Shown here: one piece after another, positions 1,216 through 59,576 of the stretch | How the letters are laid out: each line of letters begins with the position of its first letter | How positions within the stretch are numbered: the stretch's first letter is position 1 | Source of the DNA: Heterodontus francisci | Taxonomy: Eukaryota | NCBI RefSeq assembly: GCF_036365525.1 | Contig: NC_090406.1 | Span: forward strand, 24,596,854-24,660,853 | Length of the DNA: 64,000 nt | Direction: 5' to 3' | The notes under the pieces: generated by a model | What the model saw: the letters and a program-made list of their open reading frames with translations, nothing else | Databases searched by the model: none | What the model was told of the DNA's origin: nothing | Made by a program: the position numbers and the translations under genes

Positions 1216-3189
1216 TACAACTATAACTAAAAAATGAAGCAGATGAGAAAGCAGTTTACTGCTATGTTAATGCTTTAAGAAAAAAGCTGCATAAATGTCT
1301 GGGTATGGATGGTATTGACGGTTAGAAGTACAGATACAGCTGATCAAATACGCTAACAAAACAGTCCCAGGGCTGCTGCAGCCATAACTGAGTCAGCTGG
1401 GCACTGCTGCCTGCCGATAGTCTTATTTCTGTCATTGGTGTGTCTTGGGATTGTCCCCACAGGCTGCTAGTTGAAGTCAATGGCTATTTTCAGGCTTATG
1501 TAGATGACACCTCAAGTATCTATTCCCCTTCACAGCCACTTAAATTACAGGTTATGCCCCACAAGATGAATGCGGACCATCCTTGAATCTATGGCTCAGG
1601 AAGAAAGCAGAAATCCAAACTGCCAGTCCGAAAACTACCTGATAAATTGATTAAATGTATTCCAAAAGATAGTAAATAGCATGAGATTCATTTTTAAGAG
1701 CCAAGGGAAACCACTTTAAACAGAAAGTAGATGCCCTATCTTTCTTTTCCTCTTAAACCATATCACGATAGCATTGCAGTTTCAGGCTGAGGAGTGCTTC
1801 AAAATATCTTTTCCCTACTGAGCAATCTTTCATCATCACTAGGTTGCAAGCAATTTTACATTACAATTACATACATGATTCTGAAATGCACTTTATTTAT
1901 ACTGAGACAATTTTCACCTGTTCTTTGGGTAGGGAAAATTCATCGTGTTGAGAGGTTCTGAACATTTTTAAGTTGCTGATCTCATTAATCCGTTCACAGC
2001 ATAAATTTAAAATAAATACGAATTATGCTATTATTTTTGACAGCTTCATTTCTTTGAAGCATGATCATTCTCACTACTTGCTAGCCATACCTAATCAGAA
2101 AAGTGCTAGACCAGATCATTTTTCACTATAACTCAAATATTTAAAATGCAATTCTCTCTTAAAATGCTTAAATAGAGGATTAAATTTTCTGAAAAAAGGA
2201 TAAAATTGGTAAAATTGTAAACTGTTAATTGGAAGCTTGATTTTTTTCCCTCAAGATTCATATAATTAACACTCATCATGAACATTTATTTTGAGATTTC
2301 AGATCTGTAACCAGATGGTCAACTCCCAAAGGTCCACAAATTAATTACTCCTCAGAAACTACTGAAGAGATAAAATGCTTCACATCCTTAGCCAATGGCA
2401 ACGAAGAGACAATGAAAGGGTATAATTTTTCTTCCATGCACTTTAACCCTTTAATATTTATTGTAAGTTTGCATTTCAGTGTCCAATTGACAATTCATAT
2501 TCAATTGCTACTGCAGAGAATATGCTACATTGAGCATATTATAAACTTGAAATGTGTTTTACGCCAAAAGAAGTCTCTCCTCAACTCAATAGTAAACAGT
2601 GCTCAAAATATTCTCAATCGCAATAAATGCACACTGCTACTTCTGCACTGATGCAAATGAGTTTCAGGTACCCGAATAGCAGTATAACTCTGAAGTCAGA
2701 GTCTAATCACGCATTTGAGTGCACTTTAGTTGCTTTTATGTTGTTCTATTTTTAGTTCAGATTTTGGGATTCCTTTATCTGTGAGCCAGTTCTCGGTGTT
2801 TATGCTGTTAAATCCATTTTCCATAGCTTGTCTGCAGGCTTGTCAATCCAGTTAATGGATTTGTAACAGTATTAATGCTGGCTGCTGGCTCTCAGATTCC
2901 AAGTTAAAAGACCAACATAAAAGCGGCTTTAATCAAATGGTGTGAAAGTGCTGCCAGTTGGCATTCTCACACCATTTTAAATTTGCACCAGGTACATTTT
3001 AAACAACACTTGCTCAAAGACACATTTTGACAATGCCCAGCCTGTCTATCGTTCTTTTTGGAATAGTTGACAATCTGACAATATCAATGTCTCGTAACTT
3101 TTAAAGCTTTGTATAGAATGTTTTTAATTTAATAAAAAAGCAGACACTCCAATTTACTTCGGTCACATAAAAAAATTAACCACCTTATG

Positions 3190-5165
3190 TTTGAGTGTCA
3201 AGCTGTTTAGTCACTAACCTTACTGGAGGGATGAGTACTGAACTGTAAAACTTTAGTCTCCCAAATGCCCATTTATGAGACCAATGACTGCAGGATAATT
3301 ATAGCCTTAATTGACATATTAAACTTAAAGGTGCTTGGACTGGGCAGGGTGAAAATGGATCAGATCTGCAACAATGCAAGTTGGCCAGATACTACATAAC
3401 ATTTTCAAAATGTCATGATCATGCAATACAAACTTATGAACTATCATGATGAACCTATGAAGAAAACCGGAAATGGACACCTTCCTGTAAAACAAAATGG
3501 AGTTGTGAGGTCAGGTGACCTTTTCTTTTCTGCCAATACACATAGAACCGCAAGAACCCCCGAGTTACTTGCCATGTCTGGACATGTCTTTGCGAGCCAC
3601 TAAAATGCAACTGCCTTTCTGGACATATCTTTCAGAAGTCACTAAAATGCAAATGACCCTTCTTGTGGTAATGGCTGCATTTCTCCAAAATTAAAAAAAC
3701 AACTAAGTTCAAAATACTCTTGTAGACTCTTCGACTCTAAACTTGAAATCCAGAAAATGGGTGAGAAAAGTTCTATTTTATCAAGATGGTATATGGATGA
3801 CTGTCTGACCATGGCCTAACCATCAGAAACTATTTATGACAATGGAAAGAGATGTTTTGGTCACATGACAGAAATTGTTTTGGGGGGGGGGGGGGGGGAA
3901 ATTTTATGCTCTTCCTCGCAGCAGGTTTGGAGGCAGGAAGGGCATAAAATTGGGTGGGAAGGCGGCGGGGGGTTCCCACCTCAATCAAAATTAAGTCTGG
4001 GGAAGGAAGGCCTGTGAACGGCCTTCCCCCCACCAATTGAAGCCCCCTAACTGGGCAATTAATGCCCAATTAGGAGCCTCATCCTGCCACTGCAGTTAGC
4101 CATGCGGCCCTGTTGCCGCATGGGAAGCATGGCATGAGAAACTGTGCGGGCTGCTTTCCAGCTTGGTGGAGGGTGGGGGGTGGGGGGGTTCCGTTTTAAA
4201 AGCCGCTTCGTGCCTGAATGAGGGACCTGGCATTGGGTAGGGGGGCAGCTTGCTGATTGCTACCAGCTTACACTCCCCTCCCCAACGACCCCTCCCACCC
4301 TGACCTACCTGTGGCCTGGTTGCAGCGCCACTCCTGGGCCTTGGGTAGGTGTTCCACTGACAGCAGCCACTGTCTCTGCGGTGGTGCTGCTCAGTGAAAG
4401 AACTGCCAGCCTCTGATTGGCCAGCTCTCAAAGGGCAGGACTTCCATCACCAGGGTCCTTGATCCCGTGGAAGGCCCGTCACTGTCCACTTAAGTGCCTA
4501 ATTGGCACTGAATTTGATCGGCCTCCCACAAAAGAGGCAACGTGGGGTTCTCGGCGTCACTTTTTCCAGATGTTGAGACCCCTGTTTCCAGGATAAAATC
4601 CCGGCCCAGGTTTCTGATAAAGGGTTTTAATAAGGCACATTCTGGGCAGGCAGAAACAGGAGAAACATCTATGCCAACAAAGGGAAAGAACCCTGCCTAA
4701 GACCACCAGTTTTAAGCTACATATAGGCAGAGACTCAGGTTGGCCTTGAACTCTCCACCTCAGGAACCATACCTGGGCTTCACCATTGAAACTTGACTGG
4801 AGTATAACAAAAGAAATCTGCTACTGTGAACATAAAACAACAGTGAATCCATCCTCCTAAACCTCCAGAGCTTTTCTTCAGTGACAAAAAAAGATTACAG
4901 ACCTACATTATTTCAAGTTTTCACCTTGGGGAAAAGCAAGTGTAACAGAGAACTCTTGAAATCATAAGACACAAATACATGCTACTTTTACAATCGTAAT
5001 CTTTTCTTGTGTATCTATATGAGTGTGAGGTGAGTGTAGTTGTGTATATTTGGGCGTTGAAATATAAACATTTATCTTTCTTTTAAAAATTACAAGAAGA
5101 CCTGTCATTTGTCTGTTCCTGATAATTAAAGCACTCGGGAGCTAAAATTAAAAAAAAAACACACT
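3190..5165 (+). mobile_element. Probable solo LTR split by a MITE (3893-4607)
   Basis: 5000-5165 resembles 51040-51190 (TG tract, caagaa.ac.tgtca, aaacacact); the 5' boundary is approximate. Confidence 0.4.
3893..4607. mobile_element. GC-rich MITE (PIF/Harbinger-like TIRs)
   Basis: GGGGGAAATTTTATG ... ATAAAATCCCGGCCC ends; internally similar to 23649-24376. Confidence 0.75.
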
Positions 5166-7989
5166 GGGCTGAATTTTACTTTTCTGCCGCCGGGAGCAGT
5201 GGCATGCAAAGAAAATGGTGGCTCGCATGCACAGACTGCCTGCCGCCATGTTGCCATAATCTAGTGCGCGGTGGCTCATTTCCATACCCAGGGCAGTACC
5301 CCCCCCCCCCCCCACTACACTGTACATATATGTGTGACCCATTCCCCTCCCATCCCAATACACAGAAAATACAGGGTAATCCCTGGACGGGAAAGCGAAG
5401 GCACGCGTGTGCCAGCCGTCACAAAGAAGGACGCGGACAGAGGGGTAAGATCGTGGGGAACGGTATGTTAATTTATTCATGTCCTTTATTTCAATAATTA
5501 AAGTTGGGTCCCGTCACCGAGCGGCGGTGGGGCTGCCATGGAGCCTTGCCGCCGCCAGTAAGATTGGCCCGGCAATCCCAGCATTGGGCTCTGTGGGGGG
5601 CTGCTGCCGCTGCGATCATCCAGCCCAAACCTGCCATAGAGCCCGATGTCAGGAGCTCAACAAAATTCACAGTCTTTGGTCAATCGAGAGGTGAAAAGGG
5701 GGAGCTATCCCTAACATCTCTCCCCTGTCCGTAACACATAGCCAAATACAAGTAGCCTGGGGTAGGAATTTTCTGCTTATCCCAATGGCCTGCCTTGACC
5801 CAGCTCGTTTTCCAGAGTATGGATGATAACCTAGCTGGGCTTCCAGAAGGCTGCCTGCTGAAGTTACACCGTGGAACTGGCAAAACTTAGGTCAGTATGC
5901 AATTCTTTATCACCAGTAAGAGGTAATTATTCTTTTAGAAAACTTCTTTTTCTTTGTTTTGAATTTTTTTTTTTTACATTTTTGAGAGTTTACTCACGGG
6001 TGAGGTATTTCTGCGCTGGGGAATAGAACATGTTTCCATTTCTGACTCTGACTGCTACTCGCCAATTCAGGATGAGTAACTTTTAAAGAAAGCAAACTGA
6101 AACATTTGAATGGTAATATCCTGCTGCATTTCTGTTGTCTTTGGACTTACCAACTGAATCAAACAACTTTTGATTTGCCTATGGTCTAAAACTATTTCCT
6201 TAACACTGAGATTTGATTGATTAGTTAACTGATGAATTTTCATTTTAGCCAATCGCTAATTTCTGCCTAATATGTAATGCCCCAAGGTGTGACAACTTTG
6301 TAAAGGCATGATGAATGCATGCTAAATGCAAGACTTTTGAGTTTCTTTCTGGTATTGCTTTTGACTCTCCCATTTCAGAAACTCGCAGATATGTGTAGCA
6401 AGTTGATCACATCAATATACATTAGTAAAATTCAGGATACTGTGATAATGGTTCTAGGAATACTAGAACACAGCTAAAATTTAGAACTGAATGGAACTTT
6501 GCCTCATTAACTGACTATTATTTCATTAGCAATAGCTTTCACAGTTTGGAAGCTGACAATGAGTTGACTGCCAGTGATAACCAGGTAATAGATTTGCATT
6601 GCAGGAGGCTCTGAAATAATCATTACAGTAGGGATGAAGGGCATTTCAGATAGAAATATTAATAGAACTGTTGGGGATTAGTCCAGGAGGTATTTAGAGT
6701 AACATTTTACGATTGAATGTGCTTAACTAGGGAATTTTATAATTTTCTGCAAAAAGATCTAATATCAGCTACCTTATTGTATCACCATGATGCTGGATGC
6801 AAGACTAAAATTTCAAATAAAATGATTTTAATCAGGTTATGTAATATTATGTGGTTTTCCCTTTCCCGGGAATCCAGCTACATATTCACTTTCATTCTCT
6901 GGGACTGCATAAATAGTTTTATTCTGTGGGTGCACATGATAACATCACCATCAAAATTAAGGTGCCTTTTGTACTCTTACTTTTTAAGCAAATGATTTTT
7001 GTAGAATATACTCTATATTTTGTATTGTTAATATGTAATACTCCCATACTATTTTATGCCTAGGTAGAAGACTGCTGTAAAATCAACTGATTAAGCTGCT
7101 TTTCTAAAGAACTGCAAACCAATGAATATAAATTTTCATCATCGTCACCTCAAGACAGTGCACATCTGGTACAACATATTTGTTGCATCAAGGTGACGAA
7201 GGAGAGAATTTTCCACCATCATTTAATGCAAATTGAAGTCCACACCTTCTACACTATTTCTTAGTTATAGTGGTAATGGGAGGGAGAAAGGTCGATTAAT
7301 CCCTTTGGTAATTCTGTGCTACAAAGAATTTTAGATGCAAATTTCCCTGTTAATGGCTTGGTTTTCTGGGGTCCAACAGCTTCTGTTTTTTTTTACTGGG
7401 ACTGAAGTTACTGTCTACATGCTTTCCAATGAAACCCGACCAGCATACTCCTAAAACTCTAAGTAGAGTTACTCAACTTGAAGTTTTCCATGTTGGTAAT
7501 AAATTAGTTTTTTTAACATCCAAGTACATTCTTGTAAGTATATTATTTTCCGCTACAAAATGGGAGAATATCTGGAGAACAAAGTACACCCTCTCGGCTT
7601 TACTTCTCTTTTACGTAAATGTTATTAGCTATTGTGAAATGTTTGCACTATACATTAATGGATTGCAAAAGGATGATAGTTACCTAAATTTAAACACAAG
7701 TACAATTATATTACACAAGTAGGGTAGATCAAGTGCAACCACAAACTGCTAATGTAGACAATGATATTCAGATATTTAAAAAAATCTTTAAAATTTTTTA
7801 AGCCAAAGGCTCTGCATTGCAACATCTATACTGCATCTGGCACTGGAATAAAATGAAAATGGCCAGCACCATTTGTGTCATTATAACTTTATTGAAGATT
7901 TAGCCGAGCATCTATCTGCAATTGTTTCCAATTAGACTGGTAGCAAAGAAAAATATATTTTTTCATAGCTATAGTGTTTGAAATATCTG

Positions 7990-10900
7990 AATTGGGGAGA
8001 GATTAAAAAGCAGGACCTCAAACGTTGCAATCTCTGGACTACTCCCAGTGCCATGTGCTAGTGAGTATAGGAATAGGAGGATAGAGCAGATGAATGCACG
8101 GCTGAGGTGGTGCAGGAAGGAAAGCTTTAGTTCCCTGGATCACTGGGTCTGTTTCTGGCAAAGGTGGGACCTGTACAAGTTGGATGGGTTGCACCTGAAC
8201 CAGAACGGGACCAACATCCTTGCTGGGAGGTTTGCTAGTGCTGTTGGGGGGGGGGGGGGTGGGTTTAAACTAATTTGGCAGGGAGATGGGATACAGAGTG
8301 GAGTTACAGTAGGGTGTGATGCACAGTCAAATATAGAAGAGAAACTGAGTCAGTCTGGAAGGCAGAGCAAATATAGACCTGTTAAGGCACAAGTGAAAAA
8401 TGCAAGGCTAGATTGCATCTATTTTAATGCAAGGAGTCTTACTAGTAAGGCAGATGAATTGAGGGCATTGATTAGCACATGGCATTATGATATTATTACT
8501 ATCAAAGAGACATGGGTGAGGGAGGAGTAGGACTGGCAGCTCAATATTCCAGGGTATAGAATCTTCAGGCATGACACGGGAGGGGGTAAAAGAGGAGGTG
8601 GCATTGCACTGTTGATCAAGGAGTCAATTACTGCAGTAAGGAGGGGTGATATCTTAGAAGGTTCCTCAAATGAGGCCATAGGGTAGAACTTAAAAACAAA
8701 AAGGGGGCAATCACTTGTCTGGGAGTGTACTACAGGCCCCCAAACAGTCAGGGAGAGATAGAGGAGCAGATATGTAGGCAAATCTCAGAGAAGTGTAAAA
8801 ATATTAGAGTAACAATAGTAGGGGATTTCAACTTCCCCAATATCAACTGGGATAGTCTTAGTGTAAAAGGCTTAAAGGGGGCTGAATTCTTAAAATGCAT
8901 ACAGGAGAGCTTATTGAGCCAGTACGTAGATAGTCCTACAAGAGAAGGGGCAGTACTGGACCTAATCTTAGGGAATGAAGCCGGACAAGTGGTAGAAGTG
9001 TCAGTGGGGGAACATTTCGGGGATAGTGGCCATAACATAAGATTTAAGCTAGTCATGGAAAAGGACAAAGATGGACCGAAAATAAAGGTACTGAATTGGG
9101 GGAAGGCCGATTTTAAGATGATAAAACAGGATCTGGCCAAAGTGGACTGGGAGCAGCTACCTGTAGGAAAGTCGACATCAGATCAGTGGGAGTCATTCAA
9201 AGAGGAAATAGTGAGAGTTCAGAGCCAACATGTACCCATTAAGGTGAAGGGTAGGACCAACAAGTCCAGGGAACCCTGGATGTCAAGGGATATAGAGGAT
9301 TGGATCAGTAAAAAAAAGAGGCTTATGGCAGATTCAGAATGCTGAAAACAGTGGAGGCACTAGAGGAGTATAGAAAATGTTGGGGGGTATTTAAAAAAGT
9401 AATTAGGAGAGCGAAGAGGAGACATGAAAAAACACTGGCGAGCAAGATAAAGGAAAATCCCAAGGCGTTTTATAAGTATATTAAGGGCAAGAGGATAACC
9501 AGGGAAAGAGTAGGGCCCATTAGGGACCAAAGTGGTAATGTGTGTGTGGAGCCGGAGGACATAGGTGAGGTTTTAAATGATTACTTTTCATCTGTGTTCA
9601 CCATGGAGAAGGACGATGTAGGTGTAGAGATCAGGGAGGGGGATTGTGATAGACTTGAACATATTAGCATTGAAAGGGAGGAAGTATTAGCTGTTTTAGT
9701 GGGCTTAAAAAATCCTCAGGCCCAGATGAGATGTATCCCAGGCTGTTACGTGAGGCAAGGGAGGAGATTGCAAGGGCTCTGACATAAATTTTCAAATCCT
9801 CTCTGGCCACAGGTGAGGTACTCGAGGATTGGAGGATAGCAAATGTGGTAGCAATATTTAAGAAGGGTAGTAGGGATCAACCCGGTAATTACAGGCCACT
9901 GTCTCAAAAAATTCAATCAAGTTAGTCAGACATGATCTCCCCCTGACAAAGCCATGCTGACTATCCCTGATTAATCCCTGCCTCTTCAAGTGGAGATTAA
10001 TACTGTCCCTCAGTGGTTGGGAAACTATTGGAAAAAATTCTGAGGGACAGTATTAATCTCCACTTGAAGAGGCAGGGATTAATCAGGGATAGTCAGCATG
10101 GCTTTGTCAGGGGGAGATCATGTCTGACTAACTTGATTGAATTTTTTGAGACAGTGACGAAATTGTAGATGAGGGTAAAGCAGTTGATGTAGTCTATATG
10201 GACTTCAGTAAGGCTTTTAATAAGGTCGCTCATGGGAGATTGATTAAGAAAGTAAGAGCCCATGGGATCCAAGGCAATATGGCAAATTGGATCCAAAATT
10301 GGCTTAGTGGCAGGAGGCTGAGAGTGATGGTCGAGGGTTGTTTTTGCGAGTGGAAGCCCATGACCAGTGGTGTACTGCAAAGATCGGTGCTGGGACCCTT
10401 GCTGTTTGTAGTGTACATTAATGATTTAGACGTGAATATAGGAGGTGTGATCAGTAAGTTCGCAGACGACACGAAAATTGGTGGTGTCATAAATAGTGAG
10501 GAGGAAAGCCTTAGATTACAGGACGATATAGATGGGCTGGTAAGATGGGTGGAGCTGTGGCAAATGGAATTTAATCCTGAGAAGTGTGAGGTGATGCATT
10601 TTGGGAGGACCAATAAGGCAAGGGAATATACAAAGGATGGTAGGACCCTACGAAGGACAGAGGGTCAGAGGGGCCTTGGTGTACTTGTCCATAGATCACT
10701 GAAGGCAGCAGCACAGGTAGATAAGGTGGTTAGGAAAGCATATGGGATACTTGCCTTTATTAGCCGATGCATAGCATATAAGAGCAGGGAGGTTATGATG
10801 GAGCTCTATAAAATGCTAGTCAGGCTACAGCTGGAGGACTGTGCACAGTTCTGGGCACCACACTATAGCAAGGATGTGATTGCAATGGAGAGGGTGCAGA

Positions 10901-11015
10901 GGAGATTCACCAAGATGTTGCCTGGATTGGAGCATTTCAGCTATTGAGAGAGACTGAAAAGGCTTGGGTTGTTTTACTTGGAGCAGAGAAGGCTGAGGGG
11001 AGATATGATTGAGGT
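7990..11015 (+). mobile_element. CR1 LINE, decayed (ORF1 esterase C-terminus, ORF2 endonuclease and RT)
   Basis: DGLHLN esterase motif, FNARS, YYRPP, GDFNFP, DFSKAF, KFADDTK; stops and frameshifts. Confidence 0.95.
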
Positions 11016-26224: not shown

Positions 26225-26345
26225 AAAAATATTGCGGATGCTGGAAATCTGAAATAAAAACAGAAAATATTGGAAACAGTCAGCAGGTCTGGCAAATGCT
26301 GCCCCACCTGCTGAGTATTCCCTGCATTTTTTGCTTTAATTTCAA
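26225..26345. repeat. Short inverted remnant of a Penelope-type terminal repeat
   Basis: ctggaaatctgaaataaaaacagaaaat... followed by its inverted partner; same family as 46347-46560. Confidence 0.55.
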
Positions 26346-26998
26346 TGACCTTAATCCTACACTAAATGGTGTCTCCATTCTGAACATCAGATTCTTGACA
26401 CAGCTCTTTCAGTTCAAACAGATGTGAGCAATTTCCTGCTGTCAGTTTGAGGCTTCCGAGAAAAAAATAAGACTGCCAATATCCCTTTCCATTAGTGATA
26501 ATTAGAAACCGGAATGGCTAGCCGGGGGTCTACTTTAGCTTCTTTTTGTATGGCTACTAAACTGCAGTAACTATCTTACACACACATATAGTGCAATTGG
26601 CTGGGAACTGTTAGGTGCAAAATATATCCATGACAACATGTTTAACACTTTATATTTCAGTGTCAATTTAGTCAATGCAGTGGGTTAATCATGTAATGAA
26701 AAGAAAATTGCATCAACAGAAGCCCAAACAAGCAAATGCGTATCTCACACTGCGAGGCCAACCCGAAAGATGTAAACTAGATGCTTATTTCTCCTTTGCA
26801 ACTGTATTTTCTTACATTGTAGGCTAGTTGCTAATTGTCTGAAACTAGTAAAATTTAGGTAACCCTCAAAGGTGGCTGATATTAACACAGGCTACTGTAT
26901 CTTTTGTACATTATTTCTAATTTCTAATCTGGACTTTTATTCATATTTTTAATCATGACATAATTCTGCTTAGATGAAAAGAAACTTAAAAGATGTTA

Positions 26999-27106
<108 letters not shown>

Positions 27107-28876
27107 TTAATAATGATTGAAAACATGAGGGTAGATTTTCAACCTACTGCCTGATCATTAAACTCCTGTCACGGACAAACCATCTCTTTTAGAATCTACC
27201 CAATTTTCATTTCCATTGATTCTGATGGAAACAAAATCTGTGCCATCATGTTAAAATAGGCAGTCATCTCTCAATACTGATCTGCATATCTAAATAGTAG
27301 TTAGTATACTATCTCAATCAAAAGTAGTCATTTGGAACAGATTATTCTGAACTGACTCAGAAGAATTAAACAGAACCAATACTCTTGTCATTCATTATAA
27401 CAAAGCAGTTACAGAAGTAGAACCACAACGTATACACATAATTGCTACACCACAATTGTGCAACACTGACTTTTCTTTTTGCAGATTCTCCATGTTTCAC
27501 ATATCCGAGACTCTACTGAGAATCCAGAAACATGAACAAGCATGTTCTGCAGAAAACTGTACAGTATTCTTTTATTGTCAACATAAAACAATTTCTTGTA
27601 GAATGTCCATTTCAAATTGAGAATTTTCTATCGTGCACAAATAAAACAAAATTTTTATTCATGCTTTGTCTTAACTAAGGTAAAAACATGAATAAATGGG
27701 TAGTTTGTGCATGGAAGTGTTTTAACTCAAGGCGTTGCACTATTATTAGTGCTTGGTCAAATTAATCTGCACTAAGGCTCGTATATATTTGGTTCAAAAA
27801 ATATTCAGTTTGTTGAAATAATATTTGGTTTATCTCCATCACTCTGCCAGAACTGCTGAGTATTTCCAGCATTTTCTGCTGTAATTTCAATTACTTTAAT
27901 CCTACACTAAATGGTGAGTCCATTCTGAACATCTGATTCCTGTCACAGGGCTTTCAGTTCAAACAGACATGAGCAATTTGCTGCTGTCAGTTTGAGCCTA
28001 CCGAGAAAAAAATAAGACTGCCAATATCCCTTTCCATTACTGATAATTAGCAACTGGAAAGGTTAGCTGCAGGTCTACATTAGCTTCTATTTGTACTACA
28101 ACTAAACTGCAGTAACTCTCTTACACATATTTATATGGGGGGAATTTTATGGAGGTAATGGGGGTCTCAGCCACTGGCTGGAGAGCCGGCGAGAGACCCA
28201 TGTTGCCTCCTTTGGGGAAGGCCCACTGAATTATGAGCCAATCAGACAATTAACAGCCAACCGGCAGGCCTTCCACAGGTTCAGGATCTCAGGGACAGGA
28301 AGCCTTGCTTGCTGAGAACTGCCAGCCAATCAGAGGCCAGCAGCTCTTTTGCTCAGCAACGCCACCGGGATGGTGGTGGCTGCTGCCAGGATGACACCCA
28401 CAGGAGGCCGAGGATTGCAGAGCAAACCAGGCCATTGGTAAGTGATGGCAGGAGGAGATTTGCGGGATGGGGGTCACGGGGGAGGGAGGTGTAAAGGGGC
28501 TGGCAGCAAGGACAGAATGGTTGGCTCACAGCGCCCCCTCCCCCCAACCTTCTCGATGCCAGGTCCCTCGATTGGACATTAAGTGCCTTTGAACGAGGGA
28601 CCGCTCACCCCGAGAGACCACAAGTAACCCCGCACAGGTTTGCACGTTGTGCTCCCCGTGTGGCGACAGGCCCTCCTGCTCTGGGTTAATACCAGTGGCG
28701 GGGGGTAAGAGGCCCTTAATTGGACATCAAGGGCCTCAATTTGCGACAGGGTGGGTAGGTCATCCACAGGCCTTCCCACCACGGACTTAATCGGGCTGGA
28801 GGCGGGAAAGTGGCAGGGTCCCCATCTCCACCATCCTGCCCTATTAAATGCCTTCCCTGCCACCAAATATGCCACA

Positions 28877-31714
28877 TGACAGTGTTGCTACTTATCAAGT
28901 TGAGTTTTTTTTCAAAAGCTCTGGGGAAAAAAAAACAGGGAATACTGATTTCTCTCCCAGGCTGACCAAGATCAGCGACATTGCAGGAGGCAGTGAAACA
29001 AAAAGCACGGGAAATCTCCGATCACTGCAGAGTCTCCATTCATGCAGCCAAAGTTTAAAAAAAATTAAACCACTTGTGCGTGAAGAAGTCTCCATTCACG
29101 CAGCCGCAGTAAAACAAAAAATTAAATAATTAGAGCGTGAAGAACAAACGAATTCTGGCCAAAAAGAAGCAACTGAACAGCTGTGTAAACAGACGAGCTG
29201 AAGTGCCGCAAGATAAACACAGAACACTGTCAAACACCTGTTACTCTCCATCCAGGCAGCTAGTCTAAATAATAAGGGGAAACAGAGCAGAGTGATGGAA
29301 CAAAATTAAATATAGAGAGCACAAAGCAAAAGAACAGCAGAAAAATGGATACCAAATTCCCCAGCATGAACTGGAAGGACACTGATATCCTATCTGAGTT
29401 CAAACTTTTTAAACAAAGAATGCAGTTATGCTTCACAGACCAAGAGATTGTAGGACCAGAGCAGCAGGCTGTAAAAATACTAATAACAGTTGGATATGAA
29501 GGGTTACACAGAATCAACACTTCTGATTTATCTGAAGAGGACCAGAAAGATCCCGCAAAGATATGAAAAGTGCTAGAAGATCATCTCCGATTAAGAGTGA
29601 ATTTTCAAATTCACCGCCTGGAATTGAGGCCCTACAGGCAACAGCCACAGGAATTAGTAGATCAGTTCATCAGTAGATGTCATAGTAAGGGCAACGAAAG
29701 CTATTTCTCAGAAACTGAGCTGTCGGAGAGACTAATGGAGCTGGTGATTGTCTCAACACCCATTGAAGTGTTTCAAAAGAACCTTTTGGTGAAAAGAAAA
29801 GTCACAGCACTGACGCGCTGCTAGAAGATGGCAGGAAATATGAAGCTGGAGAACAGCACCTGCCAGCACTAGGTGCAGTTCAATGGTATCGACATAATAA
29901 CCAGATCGAAAAGAGTGAGCAAGCTGTGTGGTAAGTGTGGTTTTTCCCACTCACCATGAAATTGTCCTGCATTTCAAGACCTGTGCAAGGCATGCAGTGC
30001 AAAAGGACACTGGGCCCGCCTATGCAAGAAATCTGGTTCCAAAGACACAGCCATAAGTCACAGTATGACACAAGCAATCAGAAGACAAATACAGCATCAG
30101 GGCAACAGGAGAAAGGAGAGCTCCAGAGATCCACGTGAACACAAGCAGATACACGAAGCCCACAGCGAAATAGCCTTGAGACAAGACTCAGAGCGGAACA
30201 ATCCTCAGAAAGAAGACAAGCAGGCATTTCACATTGTGAACCAGACACATCATGTTGATGAAGTCAAACAACTGGAAGTTTTTGCTACCATTAACATCAT
30301 GTGCCCAAAGAAAGTTGGCAAACACACACTCAGGATTAAGACTGACACCGGAGCTAGTGCAAATATCCTACCACTCAGAATCCCTAAGGATATGCACCGG
30401 AGTTGTTGGAAATCAATGATACAATTGACAACTCCAAAGTTATCTGCATACAACAGGTCACCCATCCTTTGCAGTGGGACACTGACAATGCAATGCAGCA
30501 ATGGTAGGTCGGCATGGAAACCGTAAATATTTTACCTGGTAGACATGAGCGGACCAGCAGTGGCAGAACTACCAGCGTGTAAGGACCTCAACATCATAAC
30601 TATTCACAAGGTCACCAAGGTACCAATTACAGCAGAAGAGACCAAGGGTACCTACATTGAATCACAGTTCCACCAGGATCTCAGTGGTTCTGGTTTGGAG
30701 AGTATCAGCCCCTTCTCAAGAGAATGAAGATCCAAAATCAGATGGTAAAAGTTCTTGGTCAATGGGCAGTGTCTTTTCGTGCTCCAACTACTGAGAAGCA
30801 AAGGCTGGCAGTGGGGAGCATTCGCAAGGAGAAATCTCCAAGGACTGGAACCCGCTCGCAGACTCTGGCCAGCATCAAATGGTGCAGTCTGGAATTCCGT
30901 CAACAGCACAACTATGCCATTCCCTCACTTCTGCTCTCTAGAGAACTGCTATCACCACAATGAGCCAGAACGGACAGGTACCTCCATGCGACCAAGTACT
31001 CAACCCTGAGCCCCAGGCCTTCAAACGCAGAGCATGAGGAGAGTCAAAGGACACACAATGTCCTGAAGTCGCAGTGGAGGAATGAGTTGAAGCATTATCT
31101 GTGGCTCTTTAAGACGAGGTGCCAGAACTTTCCAAGAATGACAAGGCCCAAAAAGTGGTCATCTTGAGAAAAGCAACAGAGTATATTAGCAGGCTGAAGG
31201 CAGAGCAACAGAGCAACTTAATGCAGCGAGGGAGAAACTTCAGGAAAAAACAGCAACAGGTGAGACACGGATTCCCCAAGCAAGAGTTGTCAAACCACAG
31301 AAACGATCTATGAACTTTTAAACCTTTGCAATTGTAAATTTCATAATCCCTATCCATCAACTTGTAAATTTTAGTCTCTACCAATATAACTAATTTTGAT
31401 ATTATGCTAAAAGTAAAAACACATAAAATTTGATATGAGACTTATCTTTGGAAAGAAAGGGGATGTTGTATGATTGCCTTTAAGAGTGATGTCCCTTTAA
31501 GATCACAGTATGCTAATGAGCTAAGTACCAGGATGTAGTCATGTGACTACAAGCCAGAGTTACTCTGCAACACCTCGAGGAAGGTTCTGTAAATAGTTTG
31601 CTCTGTACTGTACCTAACAGTTTAGCTGTTAATAAACCTGTTTGAGACCTTCAACGACCTGGACTCCACACATTTCATTTATGCTGCACAAGACAATATA
31701 AAGAACTCATTACA
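28877..31714 (+). mobile_element. Non-autonomous Gypsy (Mag-like) LTR element: gag - protease - myc segment - PPT - 3' LTR
   Basis: gag fragments 29345-30138 with two Zn knuckles (CGKCGFSHSP*NC, CKACSAKGHWARLC); protease DTGASANIL; PPT 31450-31463; LTR 31464-31714 (TG...CA, AATAAA at 31631). Confidence 0.88.
30781..31313 (+). pseudogene. myc-family (MYCN-like) exon-3-type segment: Myc box IV and bHLH-ZIP, decayed
   Basis: IKWCSLEFRQQHNYAIPS; LSPRPSNAEHEESQRTHNVLKSQWRNELK; DEVPELSKNDKAQKVVILRKATEYISRLKAEQQ; in-frame TGA at 30961 and frameshifts near 31110 and 31210. Confidence 0.9.
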
Positions 31715-34439
31715 AAGAGAGCATAAAATCCTGCCCATATAGTGCAATAAGCTTGGAACTGCTGGGAACTGTCTTAATTAAGGTAAAAGCATGAGTAAAT
31801 TGATAGTATGGGCATGGGAGTGTTTTAACTCAAGGTATTGCACTATTAATAGTGCTTGGTCCAATGGATCTGCACTAAGGCTCATATATATTTGGTTCAA
31901 AAAATATTCTGTTTGTTCAAATAACACTTGGTTCATCTCCATCACTGCCAGAACAATTACCTATCTTTAAAACAGTACATACATTGTCAGCTTGTACAGC
32001 TCTGCGTAAGAGGAAGTATGATATTGTCAGCAAACGTCTGAAGGCTAAAAGCAACCTCCCAATGTAATGATGGTTTTCACATACTCAAACTATTGACATC
32101 AAAACAATAACTTGTATTTATATAGTGCCTTTAACATAGTAAAATGTCCCAAGGTGCAAGAAGGCTTATTAACAAGTGCTCATTCACAAGTGTTACTCAC
32201 TGACACACTAAAAAACAATGAACAATTTGTTAAATAAAGATTCATTATCTTCTTCTGAGAAGCATCCTCTGTACAATGTTAGGATGGACCAGCAACAGGC
32301 CACAACATACTGGGAAAGTCACATAAAAGGGACAACCACCCTTTTAAGATAAATTGTGATATCAGCAACATGCTCACGTGACTCATGGTGTTCCCACACA
32401 TTAGGGTGAACCTTGCCTTGGAGCTTCATGTTAATTTGTTCCAAGACATTTGATGAAGATATATTTTACATAGTTGCCATTTCTACAAGACCTGAGGGGA
32501 CGGCAGAGTAGTTGAGTGCAGGATGCTCACAATTTAACCACTTAGCTGAGGCTATATCTGACACTAACAATTCAAACAGCAACTTTTAACTTAATTAATT
32601 TCTGAACAAAGGTGTTCAGACAAGCAATGATAAGTTATCCAGGACAGACATGTCCCATTGTCACAAGGCAGACAGTTACGTACATCATTTGTCAATGAAA
32701 AAATAAACTTCACCCAGAGACAGAGTTGACTAAAGCCAATTTTTAAATCACATCTACGCAGCCTTTTCTGAAGTCATAAATAACAACAAAATGCTCTGGA
32801 CAACAGTTTCAGGAATAATAAAGATGCAGTTATGCAGTGACTTTTCATGTTGTGTTTCCTGCCAGTTACATGGCAAAAAAGTAATATACATGCAAGAAAC
32901 CATCAGGAAGTCAATTTTCAATGACAGGTTTACATAAAGTGAACAACTTCTGAGATTTTTGGAAAGGTTTGGTGTATTCCAGTTAGAGTGCCACAATCAT
33001 CCACACAGTGAAGATGTTCTTTTATCTCAAATTCTGAAGCGGAGAATAAAAATCTGAGAACACATGACGCTGTACTGAATGCCCAACAGTTTATCTCATA
33101 CTACAGAAATTTTCCCCAGTATAAATGAGAAAGATTGGTCACGTGATATCTCAGATGTCACAAAATATCTTAAAAGGCAATTCTTTAAGTAATCTTTTCT
33201 AGTGTGCCAGCCGTATATAGATCAGATCTATGGAAGAATGAGAAATACAGAACAGTTGGATATGCAATGCTTGCAAATTTGGCAAGACATATTGGCTGTC
33301 TTAAACCATGATAATAGTGGTTTATTTTGCCGTGGATTATTAATCAGAGTTACTGGGGACCTTAGCCTTCAGAGCGTCAAAATAATGCATATTTACATCT
33401 GATTTTCTCCCACTGTACGTTTCTTTCATTACCATTTTTGAGACTCAAGCCACAAAGTAAAAAAGAATGTTTAATCTTTTAACTACCAAATTCAATGGCT
33501 AAAATAGTTAATTTACATTTATTAAGGTGCTATGCAATTCATAAATGATTCATTTTTACAGGTCATGTCCTAAGAAGTACTGTGTCTTTATAAATTACTG
33601 TAATTTACAGAATGATTACAGTGCATTTTCAGTAGCTGTATAAATCCGGATACAACAGATTGCAAATCAGCCATGAAATTTTAATTAACCTTTCCAAACA
33701 CCTATGTTTTTACAGCATATCAATTTAAATCTTAATGTGTGGGAGGGAGAACCAAGTGTATAAAAACATATCAGCTAACTGGTTATTTTTCCAGGAATTC
33801 ATTTACAAAGTGACTGTGAGTACAATAACTGAAGTTATAATGTGGGTGGTAGGGTTCTGAAAATGGCTATAAGATTTTATCAACTGAATGGCAATTACAA
33901 TTACTGGGCTATGGGGAAAGGGCGCTAGAGTGGGACTAGCTGGATTACCCTAGCAGAGAGTCGCTACGGATAAACGGGCTCCTGCTAAGCTGTAACCAAT
34001 CTATGATTTAATGATATACTAGCAGTTGCTCACTCTAAATCAGAGCTTTTAAGACAGAGATGCTCTGCCAAGTAGTATTCCCTGGGGCACAGGTTTCTCA
34101 ACATTGGGGATCTGGAGGCACTGGGAGGGGCTCCATTAGCATCCTCTCCCAACCTTCCCATTGGCCACTTTGCATGTAGTACTGTCCGATACGAACATTT
34201 AACACTTACGTCTGGAGTTTCCTTCTTGGGCGCAACCCGGATGTTAAACTCAAAAATACACCCAATATCATGTCCACTCTAGGTTAGCCCAAGTATCCTC
34301 CCAATCTCATTTGAACATGTCCAAATTTAAAATGGACATAAATCAGTCAGAAAAAAAGGGGTACAAGGAAAGCAGTGAATCCGCAACCATATATTTCTTC
34401 TTTAACTATGAAAATAGAAGTTTCTACTCCTTTAACCTT

Positions 34440-46830: not shown

Positions 46831-47950
46831 TCTTCATTGGCCTCCTTGTCTCAGGAGACAATGGGTAAGCGCCTGGAGGTGGTCAGTGGTTTGTGGAGCA
46901 GCGCCTGGAGTGGCTATAAAGGCCAATACTAGAGTGACAGACTCTTCCACAGGTGCTGCACATAAAATTGGTTGTCGGGGTTGTTACACAGTTGGCTCTC
47001 CCCTTGCGCTTCTGACTTTTTTCCTGCCAACTGCTAAGTCTCTTCGACTCGCCACACTTTAGCCCCGCCTTTATGGCTGCCCGCCAGCTCTGGCGATCGC
47101 TGGCAACTGACTCCCACGACTTGTGATCAATGTTACAGGACTTCAAGTTGCGTTTGCAGACGTCTTTAAAGCGGAGACATTGACGGCCGGTGGGTCTGAT
47201 ACCAGTGGCGAGCTTGCTGTACAATGTGTCCTTGGGGATCCTGCCATCTTCCATGTGGCTCACATGGCCAAGTCATCTCAAGCGCCGCTGACTCAGTAGT
47301 GTGTATAAGCTGGGGATGTTGGCCGCCTCGAGGACCTCTGTGTTGGAGATATGGTCCTGCCACCTGATGCCAAGGATTCTCCGGAGGCAGCGAAGACGGA
47401 ATGAATTGAGACGACGCTCTTGGCTGACATACATTGTCCAGGCCTCGCTGCCGTAGAGCAAGGTACTGAGGACACAGGCTTGATACACTCGGACTTTTGT
47501 GTTCCGTGTCAGTGCGCCATTTTCCCACACTCTCTTGGCCAGTCTGGACATAGCAATGGAAGCCTTTCCCGTGCGCTTGTTGATTTCTGCATCGAGAGAC
47601 AGGTTACTGGTGATAGTTGAGCCTAGGTAGGTGAACTCTTGAACCACTTCCAGAGCGTGGTCGCCGATATTGATGGATGGAGCATTTCTGACGTCCTGTC
47701 CCATGATGTTCGTTTTATTGAGGCTGATGGTTAGGCCAAAATCGTTGCAGGCAGCCGCAAACCTGTCGATGAGACTCTGCAGACACTCTTCAGTATGAGA
47801 TGTTAATGCAGCATCGGCAGCAAAGAGGAGTTTCCTGATGAGGACTTTCCGTACTTTGGTCTTCGCTCTTAGGCAGGCATTTTCCTCCACACAAGATCAG
47901 GTGGCATGTTGTTCAACCTTGCCTGCCTAAGAGCGAAGACCAAAGTACGG
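46831..47950 (-). mobile_element. 5'-truncated, 5'-inverted RTE LINE with 10-bp TSD
   Basis: LLFAADAAL (from FADD), FTYLGS, LLYGSEAW, GRIPK and C-terminal C2H2; ATAATGGACT at 46821-46830 and 47951-47960. Confidence 0.93.
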
Positions 47951-53817: not shown

Positions 53818-56800
53818 ATTCCATTATTTTCACAGGACTGAAGACAGGCAATAGGTTTGTAGTTGCCTGAATCTGATATTCTCTCTTTTTGAATATGGAT
53901 ATCATATTAGTCTGTTTGCAATTATATGTACCTCCCCAGTTTCCCTGACACTCAATGAAACATAGAGCCTCTCAAATCTCTCTTCACTTCCCTTCAGAAT
54001 TCTAGGATAAGTACCATCTATCTCTAGGGATTTTGAATGTAGATTTAGCTCCCTTTGGTCCCTAGTGCCATTCACATCCGATGGGGAAGTAACTGAAGAT
54101 TGCTTCTAGCTGAGCACAACCTGAAATCAATCAGCAAACAGCATGGATGCCAAGTGCCAGCTTAAATGCTGACACTGATGACTAATATTATCCAAACAAT
54201 AAGAATGTTAAACCAGCTAAATGGTTGCACAATGCTAACCAGGTTGGAGAAGCTGTTTGCTCTGATTGGAAAAGTAACATGAAGGGAATATAGCTGACTA
54301 GATATACTACACTTTGCCGGATACCTTTTGTATTTAGGTTAAATGCTCAATGATGTCTTTGTACACGAGTATTGGTCTGCAGCAAAAAAACCTTCCTGAC
54401 GGAAATAATCCAACCCCTAGGTGAAAATAACAGTATACTAGCTAATTAATCACACCAAAAGCAATATTAAGTTGTGTATTGCGTTCAATAAATCTCAGAA
54501 TGCTTTGAATTGTACTGCTCTTGCTATTCCCGTTTTCTATTATTGTGCAGCAATTAGGTCAGTTCAGATTTGTTCATAAATTACATTCCTGTCATCTGCC
54601 AACAGAAAGTCAATGAGCAGTTGCATTGGCAATATTACAGCATGGTCTAAATGGGGAACAAGTAGCAATGTTCAGTAAAATCTTAACTTTCTGCATGATC
54701 AAATGTGCATGACAAATAAAACTCAATGTCAAGCCAGATTCCCTTTAGTAATATGCCCAGTTCATCTCATCCATGTTGTTACAATTGCAGCATCTCCATT
54801 GAAGATCTGAATGACTCTCGGGCCACATTTTGAGTAAACACAATAGCTCCTTTCATGATGTTGAGTATGGACTGCCGACAACAGATTTTCCACACCATTG
54901 TGCGAACCTCTAAAGTGCTGCAATATATTTTCCCAAAGAATAGTGTTAAACTCCAGAAAGCTTATTTTGGAAGAATAATCCTGGAGCCTATCTTAACTCA
55001 GTTTCACATTTATTGCACAGAATGAAAGGATTACAAACATGTAGCTCCTCACTCAAAACACTCCACCAGTAATTGTCTGCTTACAAGTGCTCAAGAAAGA
55101 CCCCAATTAACACCCTACACCTGCATATAATCAAACAATTGATACACAATTAACAGATTCCCATCTTTGAGAATACAATGTGGATTAATATGCTCAAAAA
55201 ACATTTCAAAGTAAATTCCATATTGGGTACCAAGTATTACATTGAGACACGCCCCTCCTCTAGCACCCCTAACAATTTCTTTGTAAGAGCATTTCTTTTT
55301 GTGAAACAATTGGACAGCTGACAACTTGCATCTACCCATTTAAGTTTGGAGATTTCCTTTCTCTCCAGGATTTGTTTCAATCCAGCAAGGTCAATATGTA
55401 GTCTTTTCTCACTCACACTTTTTGTAGAGTATACACTGTGCCACAAAGAACGATTATCCACATAACATTCAATGGGTATCCTATTTTCAGTATGTCCCTT
55501 GTTCAGAATTTCTCCCAAAATATTTGACAATTAGAACCCCATGTCTACTGCCTCCACAACACCTGGTGTTTCCACAGCTAAAGTGCTTTTAATGACCCGT
55601 TTTATTTTCTTAGCCTCCCAAGCTAAAGGACACCATTTTCCATATTCAACGATCAGAAATATTATGAAATCAGCTGCACTGGAATACCCATCAGCAAGGT
55701 TAGCATGTGAAGCATCACTAAAAATTATTAGCTTCCTGTTCTTTGGGTCACCTAAGGATGGGAATTTCAGTACACATTTCTCCAGATTTAGTTTTTTTAA
55801 TGTTTTATTTGCCCTTAAAATATTCTCAACTTCCAGCTGTTTCATCATCATGCTTAGCTCAGCACATAAAAGCTAGCAAAAGGCCTAGTTTGAAAGCACA
55901 AGCAGTTTAATTGACCAATCAAGCTTCATAATTGCTCAGTCTCTGCTTTAGAGAGATCATCATCTTTCTGTGATGACCTAACACAATTAACTGGGATGGC
56001 AGTAACACTCTCTAAAAAGGATTGTTGATTTAAAGTTATTCCAGACTTAGTCTGCTTAATATCTAAACCAATATATTTTAAGGGCCCACAAGTCTGACTC
56101 CCAATCTTAAATTCTGCCCTAATTTTATTAACAATTTATTTCTCAAAATCCACAGTACCACCCCATAAGAAATCATCAACGTGCATCATGAAGATGTCTG
56201 AAAGTTTTCCTTTATGATCCCAATAAAACATTGCAGGATCTGTTTTTAGTTGAACACAACCAATTTTCAACAAAACAGATCTCACCGAGAAATACAACAT
56301 CCTGGAAGCAGCATTAAGGTCATAGACGCATTTGTTCAGTTTCCATACTTTTCCTTCTGCATCAGCTGCCTCTTTGGGTGGTTTCAGAAACACTTCTCTC
56401 TGAAAAGTATCACGCTGCAGAAATGCAGCTTTTATGTCAATGGATCTATACTCCCATGGATATGCGGCCAAAACAGCTAAAAAGACTTTCAAGAATACTT
56501 TTCCAGCTGTGGGAGAGTCCACTCCAACATTGGTATCACCCAGTCGCTCTTCAAAACCCCTTGCAACTAGCCTCGGTTTAGCCTTATAATTCCACAGGGA
56601 AGGACTTCTTTTCGTACAAATCCATCTATGTGACAAGGCTGCCTGTCCCCTATCTGGTACCTCAGAATAAACTCCAAACTCTCTCCAACTCTCGAATTCC
56701 TTATGTTTTGCTTTTCTTATTAGTTTATCCTCAAGTTTGTTGGCAGCCACTAAACCTTTACAGTCTTCATGCTCTTTTCTTTAATAGTGCAGTGATTATG

Positions 56801-56868
56801 TTACTGGACTTTTAATCCAGAGATTGAGAGTTCAATTCTCACCTTGACTGTTGAAAATTTAGTGGTAG

Positions 56869-56940
56869 GTGATTGTCGTATAGTGGTGAGCATAGCTGCC
56901 TTCCAAGTAGTTGACCTAGGTTCAATTCCCAGCCATCGCA
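56869..56940 (+). pseudogene. tRNA-Gly(TCC) pseudogene
   Basis: GTATAGTGGTGAGCATAGCTGCCTTCCAAG matches recalled vertebrate tRNA-Gly-TCC; the stems carry transition mismatches. Confidence 0.8.
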
Positions 56941-57094
56941 AATCTGAGTATTTTGGGGGAGGTTGTGGCCAAGTGGTAATGTCACTGGACTAACAATGCA
57001 GGAACCCAGGCTAAAGCTCTGGGGGCATGGGTTTGAATCCCATCAGAGCAGATGGTGAAATTTGAATTCAATTAATAATTCTGGAATTTTCCCA

Positions 57095-57870
57095 ATACTA
57101 CAGAAAGCCGAGAGGAACATAGAAAGTAGAGAGGTGAAATCAAAAAGAAAATTAGGAAAGCTAAGAGGGAACATGAAAGAATATTGATAAGCAAAATCAA
57201 GGTGAACCCAAAGATGTTTTTGAAAGCTAACATGCAGATGATGCAAGCAATTAAGAAGGCTAATGGTATGTCAGCCTTTATTGCAAGAGGATTTGAGAAC
57301 AGTGAAGTCTTGCTTCAATTGTATAGAACCTTGGTGAGACTGCACCTGGTGTACTGTGTGCAGTTTTGGTCCCCTTACCTTAGGAAGGATATTATTGCCA
57401 TAAAGGGAGTGCAGCAAAGGATCACCAGACTTGTTACCGGGATGGCGGGACTGTCATATGAAGAGAGATTGGGGAAACTGGACCTGTATTCTCTAGAGTT
57501 TCGAAGAATGAGAGGTGATCTCATTGAAACCTACAAAATACTTAGAGATAGACAGGGTAGATGCAGATAAGATGTTGGGGAGTCTAGAACCGGGGACACA
57601 ATTTCAAAATGAGGAAGCCACTTAGGACAGAGATGAGGAGAAATGTCTTTACTCAGAGGGTTGTGAATCTTTGTAATTCTCTACCCCAGAGGACTGTGGA
57701 AGCTCAGTCATTGAGTATGTTTCAAGCAGAGATTAACAGATTTCTAAATACCAATGACATAAAGGGATATGGGGATTATGTGGGGAAAAGGCATTGAAGT
57801 GGATGATCAGCCATGATCATATTGAACGGCGGGACAGGCTTGATGGGCTGAATGGCCTACTCCTGCTCCG
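57095..57870 (+). mobile_element. CR1 3' fragment nested in the Copia element
   Basis: LVRLHLVYCVQFWSPY, RMRGDLIETYK and the CR1 tail. Confidence 0.9.
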
Positions 57871-59576
57871 ATGAGGACTTCTGCTTCTAGTTCTATTCCG
57901 ATACTGCTGTCTAGCCTTCATTTCATTGTGGAATCTGCTTAAACTATGCCCTTTATTAGTACTTTGATGTCTTTCGGGACAGCTGCTGGAAGATCTCCCT
58001 TGCACATTATCAGAGGCTCTTTCTTCAGTATGTGATCACTTCCTTACGCAAGAGTCACTTCCAGACCTACTACTAGAACTTGCACTGCGTCTTCTTACCC
58101 TCCACTTGTTCTCCCCATTCTGTAAGTCTATGGATCTTGCTTCTTGGCCATCATCTTGAACATTTAACCAATATTTTTAAACTTGCCTATAGATTTTCCT
58201 ACACGCCCCACAATTGTTGCATCCCTCCATCTAGTAGACCCGTCTGGAATATATGTGACCCGAGTACCTACCCGGGACAATTGTCCTTTGGATGCAATAG
58301 CTCTTTCTTGAGCGTCATGATCCCTCACATTACTATCCAACCCTTGATCTACCTCATTCTGTTCCTCAGGACCTTCATCACAAATCACATGAATATTTGA
58401 GGTGCAAGGTGCATCGTTTCTCCCCCCTATCAACTGTTCAGATTCTGAGATTTTGTAATCAGCCCCGATTAATTGCAAGGAATGAACTTTAACAGTTTGA
58501 TTTCCATGCGTGATAACCACTGTCTTACCATCACAACTGTTTTACTTTACCAGAGCCCTTCCATTCCCTATGACCCTCCCTTTTATAATACACCAAATCT
58601 CCTGAATTAAGTTCCACCTCAGATGGCCTTATATGATGCCTCAGAGCTGTCCGAATTTTCTCAGAGACCTCAGCCTTGATGGATGCCTGTCTCCCTGCAT
58701 GTAAAACATTCAAATGTGCAGAAAAAAACAGAACTAATTGTAGTACCTTCTAGAGCAGGAGGACTGTCGCACAGTACAGAAGGCAATTTGGATTCCACCC
58801 ACAAACCAATTGATAGGGACTATATCCTCCAATCATCTGAAGCAAATTCTTCACATGAATTGACCATGTCAAAGTAGTTGGCAACTTGCAGTTTGGCTGG
58901 TCAGCTAAGATTTTATGCAGCATTTCATTAACCATTGTGTGATTCCTTTCACAGAGCCCATTGCTGAAAGGCTTTCAGTATTCACAACCGTAATGTTCAT
59001 GATTTCACACATGTCTCTGAATTCGTCCCCTCCATTAACAGTCAGAAACTTAGCTGGAGCCCCAAGTCCAATCCCTATCCATTTCTCCGTAACTTTGTCT
59101 ATAATCACCCTCTTGTCATTGCTATTTATTATTTCAGAAAGGCTAAATCTCGTTGCTAGGTTTATAAAATGTATAATTATATTTATAATATTTATATTTA
59201 ACATAACATTTATATATATAAATTATAAAATAGAATGAAAATATTCTTGTCTTTGTCCCACACCTTTAAACTACCTCGTTAAAGTCACTTAAAGCCAATG
59301 GAAGGCTGATAATAGGACATGATGGTGTCCTCTGATCCTTTTTTTTTACAGATTTCACACTTTTCACTAATCTCTTCTGTTATCCTCGTATACTCATCAA
59401 TCACACCTGCATCCTTTAGCAGGGTTTTTAATCTGACAAGAAGGATTATCAAATTGTCTGTGTAAATTTAAGACAATTTGCTTTTTATCTCTCTGATTCT
59501 TAACACTTGATGCCATTAGTACTGTTCTAACACTCTGACCAGAATCAAGTTTTGTTAAGGGTATACTATAATGCCC

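Follow-up and report, generated by a model that had tools for sequence, protein, structure and literature searches.

A non-autonomous Gypsy-type retrotransposon family carrying spliced mych in place of pol in the genome of Heterodontus francisci

The window analysed, a 64-kb stretch of the genome of the shark Heterodontus francisci, contains on its forward strand a single copy, decayed and 5'-truncated, of a myc-carrying Gypsy family. The family is non-autonomous, the 3' two-thirds of the host gene mych replacing reverse transcriptase (RT), RNase H and the integrase (IN) core. The window copy resembles complete copies from about 28900 on, some 240-290 nt past their primer site, and this likeness identifies its first part (28900..29344) as a remnant of the 5' leader, in which a 57-nt tandem duplication was observed at 29031-29144. 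The gag region (29345..30250) is broken by stops and frameshifts and contains zinc knuckles near 29925-30020 (zf-CCHC_2, E=0.017, under the cut-off). It is followed by the aspartic protease and a linker (30251..30655), with the catalytic D-T-G at 30344 and a stop at 30524, in the frame of the myc piece. The captured spliced mych mRNA occupies 30656..31266 and corresponds to nt 382-1051 of the 1086 of the host CDS. It includes a segment (30901..30970) which, by likeness to c-Myc, we take to be Myc box IV and an NLS-like basic patch, where the position of host Lys243 (30958) is changed, and the basic region-HLH-zipper (31039..31266), where His281 (31054) is kept, Glu285 (31066) is Lys and Arg289 stands at 31078; the zipper ends 8-9 codons short of host mych. 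The integrase C-terminus remnant and the 3' untranslated part, of the short-tail subtype, extend over 31267..31445, and the polypurine tract (PPT, 31446..31463) precedes a 3' LTR of 251 bp (31464..31714, TG...CA) with a CATGTG hexamer at 31540. The 5' LTR and the primer site are absent, the LTR matching only once within the window. The 3' untranslated part also contains a 33-nt self-complementary stretch (31403-31435), matched in reverse by many copies at 84-94%, for which a packaging or dimerisation hairpin is possible.

The comparison with an RT-bearing relative, which aligned over 29298-30665 and resumed only from 31282, bore out the original prediction: between the protease and the 3' LTR there is neither RT nor RNase H nor an integrase core. 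The predicted match to a Myc bHLH-ZIP domain likewise held, the helix-2/zipper piece giving E=2e-7 against solved Myc and only E>0.1 against Max, and the Pfam HLH profile scoring 20.9 bits on the window piece against a cut-off of 20.7. The Myc-like peptides quoted earlier were all present, spread over three frames. The myc segment, first placed at 30781-31313, was corrected to 30656-31266 and starts within exon 2 of the source gene. The decay, described before as one stop with frameshifts, had been understated: the gag-pro frame contains six stops (29564, 29822, 29870, 29957, 30524 and 30725) and the myc piece six indels, five of them frameshifts.

The element sits inside a local duplication (26299-28135 and 31736-31954; 292 nt at 87% and 187 nt at 88%). 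Adjoining the truncated 5' end, at 28141-28875, is a GC-rich repeat of which the window contains other copies; the 5' LTR may have given way to it. Broken open reading frames at 7991-10947, 47273-47896, 56136-60895, 57130-57570 and 62489-63658 are, judged by their look, presumably pieces of LINE endonuclease/RT and Copia-type elements.

The source of the captured segment was found to be the host gene mych on contig C16 and not MYCN, the match named originally. The window piece showed 80% DNA identity with gaps to nt 382-1051 of the C16 CDS (673 columns; 89% over aligned bases), compared with 68% over 225 columns for the MYC-like host gene; the MYCN-like gene matched in a single patch of 62 nt. 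Exon 3 of the C16 gene is identical to the H. francisci protein labelled 'myelocytomatosis oncogene homolog' (mych) and 76-87% alike to proteins of that name in other sharks. In a tree of 41 rows covering MYC, MYCN and mych, with MYCL left out, 14 of 14 element copies nested with shark mych (99/99), and the mych clade was supported at 100/100 against MYC and MYCN; the expected grouping with the Myc family thus stood, the nearest member being mych and not MYCN. The named relatives together with the tree led to the rejection of MYCN and MYCL as donors in favour of mych. A Myc_N profile scan of the 6.0-Gb genome (118 matches among 119 scored of 1624 candidates) detected one cellular gene on each of the contigs C5, C3 and C16, the other matches being partial copies; MYCL was not among the cellular myc genes found within these 119. 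According to passages of PMC2323570, mych is a distinct member of the Myc family with maternal expression in zebrafish, and passages of PMC3958507 place its first detection after mid-blastula. The catshark Mych record P0003 showed an internal repeat ahead of the basic region, perhaps an artefact of assembly or annotation.

The mych intron of 1,707 nt was absent from all 62 copies spanning the exon joint (63 examined), the join being exact in 53; therefore the cargo was derived from mRNA, and the suggested transduction of a myc message is upheld.

A DNA search with the element returned 3605 candidates, and the 39 other places scored were 76-84% alike. Exact genome matches numbered 220 for a 20-mer of the HLH and 239 for the joint motif, with 0 for the controls. 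From contigs C1-C8, on which 7 of 98 joint matches also had the HLH motif, and with calibration on one subtype, a copy number of about 3,000 was obtained (estimate ~3,070; 95% range 1,550-7,500), so that the piece has spread as a family, as had been proposed. A protease motif with 600 genome matches was set aside as a gauge of the size of the whole family, its calibration being subtype-specific (0/22 in the RT picks, 2/16 and 6/28).

Complete copies measure about 3.1-3.8 kb, later insertions excluded, and are ordered as LTR (~255 bp), primer site, gag-pro-myc-tail, PPT, LTR, with a 5-bp target site duplication (TSD). Paired TG...CA LTRs were identified in 22/37 and 6/8 myc stretches, and among 15 full LTR pairs the TSD agreed at 5/5 positions in 2 and at 4/5 in 6. 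Over 10-15 nt, the primer-binding site behind the 5' LTR fits the 3' ends of genes for tRNA-Leu(AAG/TAG). The places matching it held no tRNA gene at two lone matches and 4 tRNA-Leu genes in two other stretches. A tandem array with a period of ~3050 bp and ~80 units was seen on contig C34 (18.73-19.00 Mb), one unit, which was checked, containing tRNA-Leu(TAG).

The same joints recur at hundreds of loci (239 exact motif matches, control 0) and bear neither TSD nor poly(A) of their own. A processed pseudogene that landed in a single dead element, or a gene domesticated by the host, would share the intronless state and nothing more, and the window copy decays as the other copies do; such an origin has a negligible probability. 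The single-locus pseudogene insertion that had been named as a refutation thus failed, the piece occurring at thousands of loci and grouping with Myc. Annotated gag-myc fusion proteins were found neither among 120 of 681 nor among 150 of 189 proteins listed, and a search for gag-pro homologs among longer proteins passed 0 of 507 candidates, which is weak evidence.

An autonomous partner with the same LTR, anticipated in the original prediction, was identified. Among 150 scored RT loci, 28 of the best 30 carry the gag-pro of the family up to the joint at 76-87%, and 12 of 12 longer stretches of this RT-bearing helper show the same LTR and no myc; ten have both LTRs, and most are 5.3-5.9 kb long. 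The helper and the myc family have gag-pro, LTR, primer site and age in common. The order PR-RT-RNase H-IN was found in the helper by tblastn, which covered the relative P0157 in order, and by Pfam on P0157 itself. The gag-pro relatives, 0 of 150 of which contain myc, are single-ORF Gypsy polyproteins (gag-PR-RT-RNase H-IN), in agreement with the Gypsy origin first assumed; with relatives and helper of this type, an origin from Retroviridae with env and infectious spread does not fit. Judged by length, env is lacking between integrase and LTR in 12 of 12 helper stretches. The marine-invertebrate Ty3/Gypsy proteins P0157, P0161 and P0140 share with the shark element the domain order and two zinc knuckles, and with the helper the same RT start and the same C-terminal motif, whereas identity over the queried gag-pro is 32-34%. 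A place in the Mag lineage is conceivable. Ten gag-pro relatives (P0121-P0161) were looked up, and the named ones came from this shark species or from Lineus and Solemya, with no other sharks; the helper may have entered the shark genome by horizontal transfer.

The defective family arose from a single-ORF Gypsy element with a tRNA-Leu primer and a 5-bp TSD, in which codons 115-353 of spliced mych took the place of pol between the RT start and the integrase tail. RT and Mych have about 7-11 nt in common at the 5' joint, where each encodes D-A-V-P in frame (the pattern was matched by 7 of 12 helpers), and at the 3' joint, behind the integrase core, 6 nt and a second patch are in common, both reading K-F-x-x-M-Q (10 of 12). 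In retroviral transduction, host sequence is acquired by two switches. By the same model, the reverse transcriptase would have switched template twice, at short homologies, onto a co-packaged mych mRNA; the joints argue strongly for capture by this route. Very probably RT and IN were provided in trans by the helper. The family grew to thousands of copies beside the RT-bearing one, its 5' side was shortened in frame at least three more times and its tail several times, and it then became extinct. The capture and the amplification as such are well supported.

Later deletions shifted the 5' joint, always on microhomology, to nt 382, 585 and 593 of the host gene. Measured from the protease Asp, the most frequent distance to myc is a multiple of three in each of the three main subtypes: 468 (5/18), 339 (7/25) and 270 (9/20). 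The fourth joint (593) reads through locally in both copies available, whose phase is broken by upstream indels. With the capture joints and three later deletion joints in frame, the suggested Gag-Pro-Myc fusion is sustained. Single copies were in phase in only 12/25 and 7/18 cases owing to private indels, and among the copies compared no frameshift or stop was common to the whole family. Of the 220 HLH matches, 20 copies were drawn in order of listing, passing over four places of which two were in the sample before; 11 of the 20 start at 582-596 and 2 at 593, and 17 have the protease upstream. Copies picked by the 5' joint alone still reached the HLH in 26 of 30 cases; nearly all the samples were found via myc, so that myc-less derivatives are under-sampled. 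The tails shorten from ~590 to 360, 270 and 170-200 nt, the short ones shifting frame after the zipper. A private 29-nt deletion at 30786/30787 removed the exon joint and box IIIb from the window copy alone; family-wide loss of box IIIb was considered and rejected, this deletion being private to the window copy among the 382/345 types. The 585 and 593 joints, however, also remove box IIIb.

As first noted for the window copy, no N-terminal MBI or MBII is present: the capture begins at codon 115 or later, and no element copy matched Mych residues 1-115, a search that gave 26 candidates and 2 matches, both host genes. In the retained part, of 133 residues that are invariant among five sharks, Glu285 is preserved in the fewest copies. 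The residues His/Glu/Arg form the E-box triad, and passages of PMC7226237 and PMC3113581 report that a change of this Glu abolishes DNA binding. The triad was present in all 80 named Myc proteins matched by pattern (of 120), and element copies as a rule lack it in intact form, Glu being found in only 10 of 104 (Lys in 74, Arg in 15). In the later subtypes the His281 codons are spread over CGC, TGC and CAC, as from a shared Arg codon, and the four groups have preserved Lys243 of the NLS-like patch in 12/16, 4/8, 6/25 and 0/26 of their copies. The long-tail group, largely picked by host likeness, so that its host-like counts may be raised, differed from the later subtypes in Glu (5/16 vs 2/58), His (15/16 vs 16/56) and Lys243 (12/16 vs 10/59). 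These three residues represent a handful of lineage events chosen after a regional scan, and one copy sampled without bias, L197, kept Glu and lost His, against a strict order of loss.

Lineage changes in the HLH-zipper are of a conservative kind, non-conservative ones falling on 0 of 47 shark-fixed residues as against 5 of 52 elsewhere (p=0.058), and the zipper heptad positions are still aliphatic in most copies. Indels are private, slips in short runs excepted, and stops cluster at three CGA codons (23, 18 and 11 of 62 copies) because of CpG decay. The copy-to-copy d0/d4 was 0.80 (bootstrap on p-distances 0.68-1.04), as in dead copies; purifying selection on the myc piece (dN/dS<1), proposed as a check with the original prediction, was not demonstrated, by tests that have no power. 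The stem ratio of 0.33-0.41 is mixed with selection on the host gene, and subtype-limited changes (4 N, 3 S) did not differ from rare changes (p=0.37).

From the joints and substitutions, the history of the Myc part may be read as follows. With moderate confidence, the piece would have been translated within the Gag-Pro polyprotein and exposed to selection, although the in-frame joints may instead reflect homology between like codons or a need for translated RNA. In the abundant lineages E-box reading would have been lost (Glu285, then His281) together with the NLS-like Lys243, the fusion being disarmed in steps while frame and dimerisation surface were retained, and the likeliest remaining activity would be Max binding without DNA reading. 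The suggestion of a dominant-negative product gains support from the changes at DNA-contact residues, and a translated Gag-Pro-Mych fusion, disarmed stepwise to leave at most a Max-binding decoy, is regarded as fairly probable. Alternatively, mych may have been a pure passenger, a stuffer of fit length whose master copies carried their substitutions by chance and whose frame came from homology or RNA stability. The non-significant dN/dS on element lineages, the shrinking of the cargo with successive deletions and the microhomology at all joints are in keeping with this, whereas four upstream joints are in frame, the sampled subtypes were trimmed on the N side only, and some seven lineage changes in 157 codons include two at the three base-contact residues (chance ~0.005, chosen post hoc); a passenger is considered rather unlikely.

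An active, oncogene-like cargo as in gag-myc retroviruses, which would have spread by making cells of the germ line or embryo proliferate or survive, is plausible only for the earliest lineage. The minority long-tail lineage retains Glu and His, PMC10177328 describes transformation of cells by a Myc-box-deficient Hydra Myc, and PMC3958507 an anti-apoptotic Mych in zebrafish embryos. Against these stand the first 115 residues, found in no copy, the Glu missing in 94 of 104 copies and the fact that the most abundant subtypes are the most disarmed, which make such a cargo distinctly improbable. Less probable still is a role in the particle, in which zipper and helix would replace the integrase tail as a coiled coil and the loss of NLS and DNA contacts would keep Gag-Pro cytoplasmic. 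The 3' joint does carry the zipper in frame into a helix behind the integrase core, and none of 26 copies of the commonest subtype retains Lys243, but the commonest tails change frame right after the zipper, and Myc zippers are poor at homodimerising according to passages of PMC7226237.

If the Max-binding decoy is accepted, it is tempting to speculate that it disturbed the host's Myc/Max network in germ cells or in cells of the early embryo and thereby made the element transpose more; we hold this proposal tentatively and with some doubt. Passages of PMC8639735 describe repression of germline genome-defence genes by the MGA/MAX complex in mouse; an anti-silencing effect via MGA/MAX would be double-edged, because titration of Max could raise defence. 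Should the decoy be real, it would represent a transposon-encoded counter-measure evolved from a proto-oncogene and refined across successive subfamilies.

The sampled copies are all old, with nothing young among them. Median LTR-pair divergences were 0.119 (22/37 stretches) and 0.127 (6/8) for the myc family and 0.111 (9/12) for the helper, that is about 0.12, one pair giving 0.05 by direct alignment, and the two families were active together. Once two twin pairs are set aside (L014/L015, of which one was dropped, and L066/L082, 97%), none of 111 copies is more than 91% alike to its nearest neighbour. Ten changes on the host's own lineage were scored, of which the copies share 4, lack 4 and are ambiguous for 2, and a further such change is lacking in 96 of 105 copies; these shared and missing changes point to a capture roughly midway along this shark's lineage since its split from other galeomorphs. 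With an age of ~200 million years for that split, if correct, the burst would be of the order of 100 million years. An absolute date from the epaulette rate of 7e-10 per generation, as given in passages of PMC10587355, was discarded, the resulting ~8e7 generations being impossible in years. Contigs of two other organisms cover the element; in one of them the junction of protease and myc is bridged by a single contig, the shorter side measuring 86 nt, and in the other all 30 element bins are covered, with no bridging joint among the matches listed.

Defective retroviruses with gag-myc genomes are known from birds (MC29, CMII, OK10 and MH2) and as FeLV-myc. Like them, the shark family has a spliced myc in place of the replication genes, in frame behind gag, with joints at short homologies and dependence on a helper, the features of a transducing retrovirus. 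It differs in its Gypsy carrier, in a mych cargo devoid of the activation domain, in the loss of DNA-contact residues instead of a gain of activity, and in thousands of germline-fixed copies. Gene capture by LTR elements is known from maize Bs1 and other plant cases and from LTR-mediated retrocopies in flies and mammals. These share with the shark family the RNA-level capture by template switching between LTRs and the amplification of the chimera, but the shark cargo is a proto-oncogene transcription factor in ~3,000 copies, the frame is kept across four joints and functional residues are changed stepwise. Id and Omomyc act as dominant-negative bHLH proteins. In common with these and with basic-region Myc mutants (passages of PMC7226237), the predicted shark fusion would keep a dimerisation domain and have neither E-box reading nor an activation domain; it differs in that its basic region is point-changed and not deleted, and in being encoded by a mobile element. 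The literature consulted contained no report of such a myc-carrying Gypsy family; most subscription papers and Repbase/Dfam lay outside its scope, and an unannotated entry is possible.

Oncogene capture has so far been known from short-lived retroviral isolates selected in tumours. The shark family provides a germline record of the process in an LTR element that is not a retrovirus, spread over several subfamilies and thousands of copies that can be dated, and indicates that a captured Myc, where the host must survive, has so far been disarmed rather than activated. The copies also preserve a fossil shark mych from partway along the lineage, and as thousands of myc-like pseudo-matches they may mislead annotation and RNA quantification.

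Two minor features were seen in both families. CATGTG, common to the helper, occurred in 81 of 121 LTRs (CACGTG 5, CACATG 1); a regulatory E-box loop was given no weight, CATGTG not being a decayed CACGTG and one CANNTG per LTR being expected by chance. GC-rich inserts of ~775 nt were present at the gag-pro site equivalent to window 30250/30253 in four myc and four RT-bearing copies (L002, L009, L018, L027, L146, L148, L157 and L160). Being 66-78% alike in patches, they were read as separate insertions and rejected as proof of recombination between helper and cargo; another repeat may target this site.
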